A DNA stretch of 33,365 bases from a virus (taxonomy: Duplodnaviria; Caudoviricetes). Both the position numbers and the translations under genes were made by a program. Positions 28,371-31,787 of the stretch are shown piece after piece (position 1 is the stretch's first letter; every line of letters begins with the position of its first letter). The notes beneath the pieces are model-generated. The model was given only the letters and a program-made list of their open reading frames with translations. It was not told the DNA's origin and did no database searches. The DNA lies in the IMG/VR virus record IMGVR_UViG_3300027769_000086, positions 1-33,365 of that record. One strand, given 5' to 3'.

Positions 28371-30094
28371 TAGTGTGTCTCCGACCAGTTGTTACCTACT
28401 TTGAATTCTGCTTCGATCTTGCAATTGCTGCGTAGTAATTCACCAGCAGTAGTTGCAGATTCGCAGAGGATCTTACCGACTTTGTTAGCTACATCAGGAT
28501 GACATTCTACTTGTAGTTCGTCATGCACCGAGGCAACCCAGTTAAACTTATCTTGACCAATCTCCATCCGTAGTCTTTGATCTGCAACACAGGCCCAAGC
28601 CTTGGCAATGTGAGCCCCAGAGGATTGAAGCAAGGTATTGAGAGCAGCATGTTCCTTACGGACATAGACAGGACGCCAGTTGAATGGCTTGACATAGCCT
28701 TTGTCCAAGGTATCAAATCGACAATTCTCAATCAACTTTTTGAGTCCAGGGATATTGCTTAGTAGTTTGTTCTTGGTTTGCTTTGCCTTGTAGACAGAAG
28801 CACCAATTGTCTTTGCAAACTTCTCATCACCACCGCCATACAGGAAGCAATAGATACCAGTCTTGGCTGTATTCCTAGAGTCCAGTTCCATAGCCTTCTG
28901 GTTGTGAGTGTGGATATCACCTTCACAGACTTCCTTGGCATATGCACCATTGTCAAATGGATACAGATAATGTGCAAGCATTCTTAGCTCTAGACCCTTG
29001 AGATCGGAGCCAACCAATACCCAACCATCTCTTGGGATAAACAATGCTCGTGCTCTAGAATCAGAGTGAACTTGTTGAATGTTGGGTTCACGACTTGACA
29101 TACGACCAGTCACAGCACCAAGGGTATTGATGTATGCATGGATACGCTTGTCACGACTTATCTTGGCACGGCTTACCCAATCAGAAACCTGAGACATTAA
29201 CTTTACAAGATCGAAATACTTGCACAAAGTCTTTGCTTCAGGGTATTCTAGGTCAGATAGAACTGCATGGTCAACCTTGGGGTTCCCCTTGTCGGTTGTG
29301 CTTGGCTCCCAGCCATACTTTTCTTGGAGTCGTTCTGCAATTTGTTGTCGAGAACCTGGATTGAAGACTTCGACTTTATCCTTGAGTCGCTTTCCTGTTT
29401 TCTCAGAATGTCTAACAATGATTTTGTCTGGAAAGATTCGTCGCATTTCGTCTTCGATTTGTGATTTCTCAATCAGTAACTCCATTTCTAATGCTTCGGC
29501 TTTGTCTAGGTCAAAGCTAAAGCCAGCTTCGACCTGACGCTTGATCATATCTGCAACGACATGTTCCATTCTGACAGCACGACTATACTGAACCATGTAG
29601 TTTTGCTGAGAAAAGTGATCCCATATCCTTGCAGTTACAACGGAATCCTGTAGACAATACTTTCCCATCTCTGCCGTATAGTTGTCCCAGCCACCTTGAT
29701 AATCAATCTTACTGTGACCTAGGTGCTGACCCCAAGCCATCAGTGAATGTGATTGATCTACAGTTGGTGGGTTGTCACCATACATAAGACGAGAAAGAAT
29801 CAAGGTATCCATTACTTGTTCTGGTTTCTTATCTAAGGAACCATGCAGTCTTTCGATCAACGGAATGTCAAAGGCATAGATGTTATGACCAATGATCAAG
29901 TCTGCATCACGAAGCATTTGGATACCATCGCTTAGGTTATCCTGCTCAAACAGCAAGAGTTCCTTTGTGTCAATGTTGTAGATTGACATACACCAAATCT
30001 TTGTAGCCTCTGGTAAATAGGTATCCTTCTTACCAGCAACTACTTCATTAAGGCCATTAGCCTCAATATCAAACGCTAATTTGATCGTATCTAT
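28370..30094 (-). CDS. Family A DNA polymerase (T7 gp5-like); true N-terminus extends upstream of the first ATG (29989), putative AUA start at 30094
   Basis: ExoI LAFDIEANGL (in frame, upstream of 29989), ExoII GHNIYAFDIP, ExoIII YCLQD, motif A DLKGLELR, motif B AKTGIYCFLYGG, motif C VHDE. The start coordinate is an inference. Confidence 0.93.
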   Translation of the reverse strand: MDTIKLAFDIEANGLNEVVAGKKDTYLPEATKIWCMSIYNIDTKELLLFEQDNLSDGIQMLRDADLIIGHNIYAFDIPLIERLHGSLDKKPEQVMDTLILSRLMYGDNPPTVDQSHSLMAWGQHLGHSKIDYQGGWDNYTAEMGKYCLQDSVVTARIWDHFSQQNYMVQYSRAVRMEHVVADMIKRQVEAGFSFDLDKAEALEMELLIEKSQIEDEMRRIFPDKIIVRHSEKTGKRLKDKVEVFNPGSRQQIAERLQEKYGWEPSTTDKGNPKVDHAVLSDLEYPEAKTLCKYFDLVKLMSQVSDWVSRAKISRDKRIHAYINTLGAVTGRMSSREPNIQQVHSDSRARALFIPRDGWVLVGSDLKGLELRMLAHYLYPFDNGAYAKEVCEGDIHTHNQKAMELDSRNTAKTGIYCFLYGGGDEKFAKTIGASVYKAKQTKNKLLSNIPGLKKLIENCRFDTLDKGYVKPFNWRPVYVRKEHAALNTLLQSSGAHIAKAWACVADQRLRMEIGQDKFNWVASVHDELQVECHPDVANKVGKILCESATTAGELLRSNCKIEAEFKVGNNWSETH

Positions 30095-31787
30095 AAAGCA
30101 CCTCTCCTTCGGGGGTAATTACAAACGGTACATCCATAAGCTTGGATGTCTGGTCGTTGTAGAACAGAGCCGTAGCAATGCCTCTACGACCACCCTTACG
30201 ATTCTTAAGGACTCGTACATTGGTTGTGTTGGCAGTTGCTGGGTCTGGGTGCTGGGCGTTGCGCTCAAGTGCAAAGACATTATCTGCAATCTGAGCAAGA
30301 GAACCTGAGCCACGAAGATCATTAAGGTTGATTCGATCACCCTCGTCTACGTTCTTATCAGTTTTCTTGATATGAGCAATGACATGGAGTGTGACACCAG
30401 TTCGCTCTACCAGTTCCCTTAGCTTCTTCATTACGGAGTCAAGCACTAGTCGTTCGTCGTTTCCAAAGTCACTACCAGAAGATAGGAGCATATTACCAAG
30501 CAGAGTAATATGATCAAGAAAGATGACTTTACAATCAAGACCAACAGCCATATACTCAAGGCGATTGATGATATTAGAAATGTTAGCGTTGCCAATGTGA
30601 TCATAAAGGTACAAAGGCTTGCTGGAAATATACGTCTTTGCTTCGGCATACTCCTCCTCGGTTAGATTATCCTCTACCATGTCAACGATAGGTTTGTTGT
30701 TGGACTTCCGCAGTTCATTGAGTTGACGCTGAGACATGATCTTACGGACTGGCTTACCAATCTTAGATGAGATCAAATCATCTACAGTCTGCTCAGGTGA
30801 TTCTTCTAGGAATACAGCACCTACAGCACGATTATGATTAAGATGATCTGAGATTAGTTCACGGATAATTGTAGACTTACCATGACCAGTGGCACTAGTC
30901 CATAGGTTAAGTCGGCCAGAGTCCTGACCAATCATGAATGTAGTTAGCGAATCCCACGGGTACTCGTATACCTGTACGGATGAATTCTCATTCTCAGATA
31001 CGACCTGACTGACATGAAGAATACTATCGGGAGAGTACGTCTTGGCATTCCAGTAGGCTTGCAGGAGTTGTGCAGCCTCGGCATTGACAAGCATCTCATT
31101 TGGATCCTTGCGAGACAGGGACATGATCTTGACCTTACCTGGTGGCAGTATTTCAGCCACGTCCCGTGCTGCCTTCTGCCCTGGATCGTCCATGTCGAAA
31201 CAAATGACGATGGTTTCGAACGAGGAAAGATAATCATACTGATCCTTTACACAGCGTACAGCTGAATTGACTCCGTTGGGGATGGAGACAACTGGGTACT
31301 TATTGTCAAAGAGTTGGGCCATAGTGAGACAGTCAATGGCTCCCTCGGTAATGAGAATCCTCTTGCCACCACTAGGAAACAAGTTCTGACCATAGAACTG
31401 GAGGTTTGATGTGTCTCCGATCCATGCGAACTTCTTGCCGTCGTATCGAATATGTTGAGCCTGTAGTGTACCATCCGTACTGTAGAAGTTCTCAACCTCT
31501 GCTCCGTTGGCAGTGGTTGCATATCCATATTGTCTAGCAGTCTTCTCGTTAATTCGTCGGTGTGGTAGAGCCTGGATCTCACCACTACGAAACTTCTCTG
31601 TGGCATATACTGGTGTTTCCTCTACGATTGTTTCCATTGGTTTGTTACCTCTTACATAAAATTCACAAGCATAGCAGTAGCTATGTCCGTCATCATAGAC
31701 GGCTAGGTTGTTTCCTGACGTGTCATTGCCTTGCGCTGCACACTTAGGGCAACGCTTACGACTTACTACTTTGGATTCTGTTTCCAT
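30069..31787 (-). CDS. Primase-helicase (T7 gp4-like)
   Basis: Zn ribbon CPKC...CYAC, TOPRIM ITEGAID and CFDMDDPG, KDPNE, Walker A ATGHGKST, FLDHI, DLRGSGSLAQ, LKNR. Confidence 0.97.
   Translation of the reverse strand: METESKVVSRKRCPKCAAQGNDTSGNNLAVYDDGHSYCYACEFYVRGNKPMETIVEETPVYATEKFRSGEIQALPHRRINEKTARQYGYATTANGAEVENFYSTDGTLQAQHIRYDGKKFAWIGDTSNLQFYGQNLFPSGGKRILITEGAIDCLTMAQLFDNKYPVVSIPNGVNSAVRCVKDQYDYLSSFETIVICFDMDDPGQKAARDVAEILPPGKVKIMSLSRKDPNEMLVNAEAAQLLQAYWNAKTYSPDSILHVSQVVSENENSSVQVYEYPWDSLTTFMIGQDSGRLNLWTSATGHGKSTIIRELISDHLNHNRAVGAVFLEESPEQTVDDLISSKIGKPVRKIMSQRQLNELRKSNNKPIVDMVEDNLTEEEYAEAKTYISSKPLYLYDHIGNANISNIINRLEYMAVGLDCKVIFLDHITLLGNMLLSSGSDFGNDERLVLDSVMKKLRELVERTGVTLHVIAHIKKTDKNVDEGDRINLNDLRGSGSLAQIADNVFALERNAQHPDPATANTTNVRVLKNRKGGRRGIATALFYNDQTSKLMDVPFVITPEGEVLYRYDQISV

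Follow-up and report, generated by a model that had tools for sequence, protein, structure and literature searches.

A probable AUA start codon for the replicative DNA polymerase of a freshwater T7-like phage group

Where does translation of a phage DNA polymerase begin when its reading frame offers no canonical start codon ahead of a conserved exonuclease motif? The question is raised by a 33,365-nt stretch of viral DNA (Caudoviricetes; IMG/VR record IMGVR_UViG_3300027769_000086, positions 1 to 33,365), which we will refer to as the window, and specifically by the junction between the end of a T7 gp4-like primase-helicase gene and the beginning of a T7 gp5-like family A DNA polymerase gene, both on the minus strand. 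From a comparison of this junction with those of related phages, we conclude that the polymerase probably initiates at an AUA codon (30094-30092) behind a Shine-Dalgarno (SD) sequence located inside the primase-helicase gene. The initial annotation of the locus had offered two explanations, namely SD-driven initiation at this ATA or a +1 ribosomal frameshift of the prfB kind; the first is the best supported by our comparison, while the second found no support in it.

A polymerase frame without a canonical start

On the minus strand, the open polymerase frame spans 30118 to 28370, and an in-frame TAA (30121-30119) closes it upstream. We numbered its codons from the aspartate (GAT, 30070-30068; codon 0) of GAT ATT GAG (30070-30062), which encodes the DxE (ExoI-type) motif of the 3'-5' exonuclease domain; ATA 30094 is then codon -8, ACG 30088 codon -6, ATC 30085 codon -5 and ATG 29989 codon +27. 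The last of these (29989-29987) is the first ATG, GTG or TTG of the frame, it lies 27 codons after the aspartate, and the 43 open codons upstream of it contain none of these triplets, meaning that reading the frame to its TAA confirmed the absence of a canonical start reported initially. In the helicase frame, positions 30110-30090 read GAA GGA GAG GTG CTT TAT AGA, and the stop codon TGA (30071-30069) overlaps the TTT GAT of the polymerase frame; a polymerase gene starting at ATA would overlap the last 26 nt of the primase-helicase gene. Four elements of this junction are central to what follows: a conserved SD-like GAAGGAGAGGTG within the helicase tail (codons Glu-Gly-Glu-Val; 30110-30099), a poorly conserved candidate +1 slip site CTT-T (30098-30095), the proposed start ATA (30094-30092; ATC in most relatives), and ACG (30088-30086), which is the homologue of an ancestral ATG and a rival start, but here likely an internal Thr codon.

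To place the junction among its relatives we gathered 323 loci (many of them one contig fetched twice), 309 of which carried the helicase tail motif and yielded 54 distinct junction sequences, henceforth types. Of the 14 loci that were dropped, nine had no junction and the other five represented two contigs, with ATC/ATG and ACC/ATG at codons -8/-6, both fitting the pattern described below. For comparisons of synonymous change we used an in-group, i.e., the window's own group (28 of its 30 types, two having too little helicase sequence), and an out-group of 21 types.

One explanation for the missing start, that an assembly or sequencing error removed an ATG, has a negligible probability. We checked the junction in assembled contigs rather than raw reads, and no indel was listed. 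Contigs from runs X8 and X9, which belong to other studies and are unmarked as a possible source, cover the junction with no differences; contigs from runs X1, X2 and X7 match it too, but may be the source of the window DNA. X1 is an RNA run that contains the junction as a contig (such a library can include DNA). The lack of a start also recurs in six other junction types of the window's clade and in type L010, and these independently assembled relatives share it amid synonymous differences around the site. The possibility of an assembly error, which the initial annotation had proposed to check, is therefore contradicted by identical junctions in several runs and studies.

A second explanation is that translation simply begins at ATG 29989 (or, in some relatives, at GTG or TTG at +9 or +18) and yields a polymerase without ExoI. 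In its favour, this ATG is the first canonical start of the frame and database entries have been called accordingly: in 12 of the 15 listed members of a database cluster the polymerase is called as 539-557 aa with the DxE motif clipped. The upstream stretch nevertheless evolves as coding sequence. Among the eight in-group types without a canonical start, codons +2 to +26 include 15 that vary only synonymously and one that changes an amino acid, and third positions account for 16 of the 19 variable columns. In the window polymerase read from ATA, D9 and E11 are invariant in an alignment of 84 homologues, and DxE falls within the first 11 residues in 111 of 120 database homologues. ATG 29989 itself has a weak SD and is best seen as an internal Met codon. 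Given this purifying selection and the invariant motif, the stretch upstream of ATG 29989 is very probably translated, as had been proposed from the window alone, and a start at ATG 29989 is very improbable. We take DxE to be the ExoI motif of T7 and Klenow polymerases; HMMER alignments to T7 began just after it, so that its equivalence to particular T7 residues is putative. In the clusters of P0023, P0034, P0070 and P0080, gene callers start the polymerase at -3, -2, +9, +17, +18 or +27, often with loss of DxE.

Which codon starts the polymerase

Across the 54 types, codon -6 is ATG in 37, ACG in 15, ATC in one and ATT in one, and a polymerase start at -6 is also found in 81 of 120 database homologues. 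Because 37 of the 54 types have ATG at this codon, the sequences indicate that the ancestral start is the ATG at -6, six codons before the aspartate of DxE, and that the start has since moved. This ATG, which was overlooked in the initial annotation, is homologous to ACG 30088 of the window, where a synonymous change has turned TAT into TAC in the helicase frame. The possibility raised there, that close relatives all have a plain ATG, is not what we found: the ancestral ATG is missing from 17 of the 54 types, 10 of which lack ATG, GTG and TTG throughout codons -9 to -1.

Loss of the ATG took six changes on the best tree, at least three of them forced by well-supported branches, and a single clade of ATG-less types was rejected (p-AU 1.9e-8). 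A distant second clade (L237 and L306, with P0157 represented as protein) has the same SD and Ile codons at both -8 (ATC in L237 and L306) and -6. In L306 (1520-1545) the helicase is shortened by five codons, stopping at CAT-TAA, while the polymerase frame reads ATC at -8 and ATT at -6 and has no canonical start until +27; a search for further relatives of L306 returned L306 itself alone. The helicase and polymerase trees disagree, with nine and six changes, respectively, and together they indicate that recombination contributes to the pattern of loss. Types L025 and L224 have near-identical helicase genes and different polymerase genes, with ACG in one and ATG in the other at -6, a difference that is due to recombination close to the junction.

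We then asked which codon is under constraint. Two synonymous sites in the helicase tail set the middle letters of polymerase codons -8 and -6, and can be compared with other synonymous helicase sites. In the in-group, all 28 types have T at the -8 site, with no changes, whereas the -6 site is divided between T (15 types) and C (13 types) and has changed four times. Against this, none of 21 other invariant-Tyr sites was fixed (mean of about five changes), and 8 of 124 two-fold NNY sites were. The out-group reverses the picture: T at -6 shows no changes (background 1 of 95 sites fixed) and the -8 site shows three. In the three types in which the overlap is resolved (L103, L120 and L123), both sites read C (TAC, CAC), as expected if they were freed once the genes separated; in the other 51 of the 54 types the genes overlap exactly as in the window.

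The SD shows a matching pattern. Its codons GAA GGA GAG GTG change at third positions zero, zero, one and two times among the 28 in-group types, even as two of these codons are uncommon ones (GGA makes up 20% of Gly codons, GTG 8% of Val codons). The full SD occurs together with ATA or ATC at -8 in 17 of 17 types without the ancestral ATG; by contrast, where codon -8 is ACA or ACC (eight types), the ATG is always retained and the full SD always missing. The eight in-group types without a nearby canonical start all have ATA, not ATC, at -8. Pairing of the SD with the anti-SD was the strongest among the window start sites tested (-11.2 kcal/mol, the next best being -10.2), calculated with an assumed E. 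coli anti-SD, which may not be that of the host. Spacing also points to the ATA, as the initial annotation had remarked: of 112 ATG genes from five genomes whose SD is clear, 99 have the SD core at a distance of 5-10 nt and five at 13 nt or more, and this distance is 7 or 9 nt for ATA, 13 or 15 nt for ACG and 16 or 18 nt for ATC 30085. At codon -8, where the initial annotation had suggested looking for an ATA/ATG interchange, relatives have ATC or ATA as DNA, and in cluster P0037, nested in the in-group and known as protein alone, a canonical start is called there in 8 of 15 listed members.

On these grounds, we suggest that the strong SD in the helicase tail anchors the 30S subunit and places AUA (30094-30092) in the ribosomal P site, and that fMet-tRNA initiates there to give a 574-aa proofreading polymerase beginning M-D-T-I-K-L-A-F-D-I-E. 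The start would have shifted from -6 to -8 once the helicase tail codons made a strong SD at the right distance, after which replacing TAT by TAC in the helicase, and with it ATG by ACG in the polymerase, would have been nearly free. More speculatively, ribosomes finishing the helicase 23 nt downstream may re-initiate at AUA by translational coupling, and a weak start may keep the polymerase scarce relative to the helicase, whether as a selected brake or as mere tolerance. SD sequences and IF3 have been described as influencing re-initiation in E. coli (PMC2268962).

The same SD could instead serve, at long spacing or through re-initiation after the helicase stop, a non-AUG start at ACG 30088 or ATC 30085. 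Codon -6 is after all the start in most types and homologues, its non-ATG states (ACG, ATC and ATT) are each one change from ATG, the T at -6 is kept in L237 and L306, types L006 and L009 have ATG at -5, and an N-terminal Met from ACG has been recorded in E. coli (10.1101/063800). Set against this are the spacing of 13-18 nt, seen in so few of the genes surveyed, and the contrast between the ATG/ACG site, which toggles at a neutral-like rate, and the -8 site, which does not. Furthermore, the Tyr/His-Asp/Glu codons of the helicase force AYG at -6 anyway. As a start, ACG is placed in the weakest E. coli class (0.1-1%; 10.1101/063800), and an AUG to ACG change severely cut synthesis of T7 0.3 (as cited in PMC5499595). 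We therefore regard initiation at ACG or ATC as unlikely.

Several observations weigh against initiation at the AUA. The invariance at -8 concerns a single site, for whose fixation the NNY background gives a chance of about 0.065; many types differ little from one another, and recombination affects the region; and a paired test of SD against ATG loss has three independent pairs only and cannot reach significance. Seven of the 17 ATG-less types have an ATG, TTG or GTG at -5, -3 or -2 that could serve instead, and a search for DNA of the P0037 lineage gave no hits. Several out-group types keep GAGGT at long spacing with ATG as the only start, meaning that -6 can work at such a distance and that ACG stays a rival. 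Finally, AUA and AUC are reported to initiate at 1-2% of AUG in E. coli (10.1101/063800), which would make near-neutral toggling of a nearby AUG odd, except where the register is set by the SD, AUA is well accepted by the host or a small amount of polymerase suffices. Larger fractions have also been published: S. aureus AUA and AUU starts behind strong SDs reach about 10-30% of AUG (ccpN, citZ and cvfC1; PMC13009471), and AUA rivalled or equalled AUG in one E. coli extract study (PMC5499595).

Frameshifts and other explanations

The junction also resembles a programmed frameshift site. In the window, the arrangement is AAGGAGAG-GTG-CTT-T, and a +1 slip at CUU-U (30098-30095) enters the polymerase frame and would give a primase-helicase-polymerase fusion of 1138 aa (564+574); the layout noted initially, with its SD, 3-nt gap and in-frame landing, is thus as described. 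According to PMC5009743, the prfB shift requires CUU-U, an A-site stop and an SD lying 3 nt upstream, and the spacing here is the one given for +1 shifts. CTT-T is present in all eight in-group types without a canonical start; within the window's lineage such types all keep SD-GUG-CUU-UAU-AGA, and polyproteins of this composition do exist (apicoplast PolA; PMC10201439).

Most of the comparative evidence runs the other way. The A-site codon is UAU rather than a stop (TAT in 28 of 28 in-group types), which bears out a reservation already made in the initial annotation. Nor is the slip site conserved, as would be expected of an SD-NNN-CTT-T signal: the 17 ATG-less types have CTTT in 10, CTAT in four, CTGT in two and CTCT in one, CTT-T occurs in 25 of 51 types overall, and by parsimony the Leu codon changes eight times among the 28 in-group types. 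L237 and L306 have CTG-T and still lack a canonical start in codons -9 to -1. CTT is, moreover, the commonest Leu codon (32%) and is present in 15 ATG-bearing types too; 37 of the 54 types retain an ordinary ATG, and in the three resolved-overlap types the genes are separate, the polymerase starting downstream of the helicase stop from an ATG with an SD of its own. In all 54 types the primase-helicase and polymerase occupy separate frames or are divided by an intervening stop, with no single open frame. A search for a fused homologue found no long protein above 29% identity among 4872 long candidates, which is weak evidence. An SD-stimulated shift at CUU-U is thus quite improbable, and we give the same low credence to the idea that, in the window's lineage, a fraction of helicase ribosomes slips +1 to make a 1138-aa Prex-like replisome polyprotein beside free helicase.

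A +1 shift could alternatively occur at the helicase stop (GUU-UGA), fusing the complete helicase directly to the aspartate of DxE. Here the A-site stop is preceded by NUU in all overlapping types and the slip lands on the aspartate. Yet there is no SD 3 nt upstream, GUU and AUU are unlike the efficient CUU-U site (PMC5009743), and the TGA is an automatic consequence of TTT GAY in the polymerase frame. In L306, where the helicase ends at CAT-TAA five codons earlier, there is still no canonical start. We consider such a shift highly improbable.

Other candidates were examined and rejected. Initiator tRNAs are marked by an unpaired 1:72 position and three G-C pairs in the anticodon stem. The tRNA-Ile(UAU) genes of relatives G001, G003 and G004, considered as a phage initiator for AUA, are elongator-like (paired acceptor end, mixed anticodon stem), and the window's own tRNAs are Lys, Gln and Leu only. 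A conserved start hairpin does not account for the invariant T (z = -1.1 in the window; folds differ between relatives; weak consensus of -3.3 kcal/mol). A separate polymerase promoter was dismissed on 11 sigma-70-like hits against 10.1 expected, translational bypass onto an Ile codon on the lack of a stop at the take-off site and of a conserved upstream Ile, and transcriptional slippage on the lack of a long conserved homopolymer. The Arg codon beside the ATA is uninformative on translation of codon -7, CGC being the majority at several other Arg sites too. Lastly, a crude screen of 218 shared frames, which would miss cases, found a near-cognate codon with an SD as the alternative start mainly at the polymerase gene, and is thus of little weight on whether the host is relaxed about start codons in general.

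Genomic setting and comparison with known systems

The window is a 33.4-kb fragment (49% complete) of a freshwater phage, with every gene on the minus strand. Besides the primase-helicase and the family A polymerase, its products include T7-like capsid, portal, nozzle and terminase proteins. The genomes of complete relatives measure about 69 kb; in one of them there are direct terminal repeats and a gene for a T7-like (single-subunit) RNA polymerase. The primase-helicase (31787-30069; 572 aa), whose last codons overlap the polymerase start region and which ends at the TGA 30071-30069, matches Pfam DnaB_C, Toprim_2 and Helic-prim_T7_N, and its counterpart in relative G001 was assigned to PHROG 239. 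The polymerase (30094-28370; 574 aa if started at ATA) matches PF00476 (E 2.8e-51), has T7 DNA polymerase as its top solved-structure match, and is about 40% identical to pelagiphage polymerases. Directly after it lies a small HNH endonuclease gene (28370-28149), followed at some distance by a B12-dependent (class II) ribonucleotide reductase gene (26589-24673).

A search of genome contigs for a host lead gave no relative. The window carries tRNA genes for Lys(UUU), Gln(UUG) and Leu(UAA) between 31828 and 32058 (minus strand), to which relatives G001-G004 add Arg(UCU) and Ile(UAU). All of these tRNAs read A-ending codons and the phages have 37-40% G+C, a combination that hints at a host of higher G+C than the phages themselves. 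In type L075, which keeps ATG at -6, ARAGORN called a tRNA (793-866) with an 8-base anticodon loop (TAAA) near the position of the relatives' tRNA-Ile(UAU); this may be a gene resembling Leu(UAA) with one base added, a tRNA in decay or one that reads four-base codons. Possible host clues are a 444-aa protein with a C-terminal dockerin type I domain (19263-17929, minus strand) and a tail fibre with a CBM5/12 module (6755-3792, minus strand).

Initiation at AUA, AUU or AUC is known from bacterial genes, including E. coli infC and pcnB (AUU) and S. aureus infC, ccpN and citZ (AUA) and cvfC1 (AUU) (PMC13009471, PMC5499595). The polymerase would resemble the infC/ccpN type in having a near-cognate Ile codon behind a strong SD, conserved among relatives and with lower initiation expected. 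By contrast, it is a phage replicative polymerase, its start and SD are contained in the preceding gene, and its start has apparently shifted by two codons away from an ancestral AUG still present in many relatives. With prfB it shares the SD 3 nt before CUU-U and the in-frame landing in the window, and it differs in having no A-site stop, an unconserved slip site and homologues that mostly have their own ATG. The domain order of apicoplast Prex equals that of the hypothetical fusion, while Prex is a single open frame from a different PolA cluster (PMC10201439) and no such fusion was found among the relatives here.

Closer to the window, T7 gp4/gp5 and pelagiphage HTVC019P likewise combine a T7-like primase-helicase with a family A polymerase. 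In HTVC019P, two small genes stand between primase and polymerase, whereas here the genes overlap, the start is non-canonical and the genomes reach about 69 kb. The HTVC019P polymerase is annotated from a TTG (L340:3004), another weak start on a T7-like polymerase. The internal AUU start of T4 gene 26 is reportedly a natural non-AUG phage start that gives a minor shorter isoform; here the near-cognate codon would start the sole full-length product. The literature we searched, largely without subscription papers, contained no description of a phage DNA polymerase with a non-AUG start, nor of this junction. The proposed mechanism is a known one in a new setting, the new elements being an essential phage gene and a start-site move visible among relatives.

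If initiation at AUA is correct, AUA or AUC is the codon from which a widespread group of freshwater T7-like phages translates its replicative polymerase, and the junction would have caught a start site on the move: once the helicase tail formed a good SD, an Ile codon would have taken over the constraint from an ancestral AUG lying two codons downstream. The relatives would then constitute a natural allelic series (AUG, ACG, AUC and AUA, with and without SD) for the acceptance of non-AUG starts in bacteria, one that also bears on whether a well-placed SD can outweigh a nearby AUG. Finally, where gene callers clip the DxE motif, as in most listed members of the cluster described above, surveys of PolA would misclassify these polymerases as lacking proofreading.

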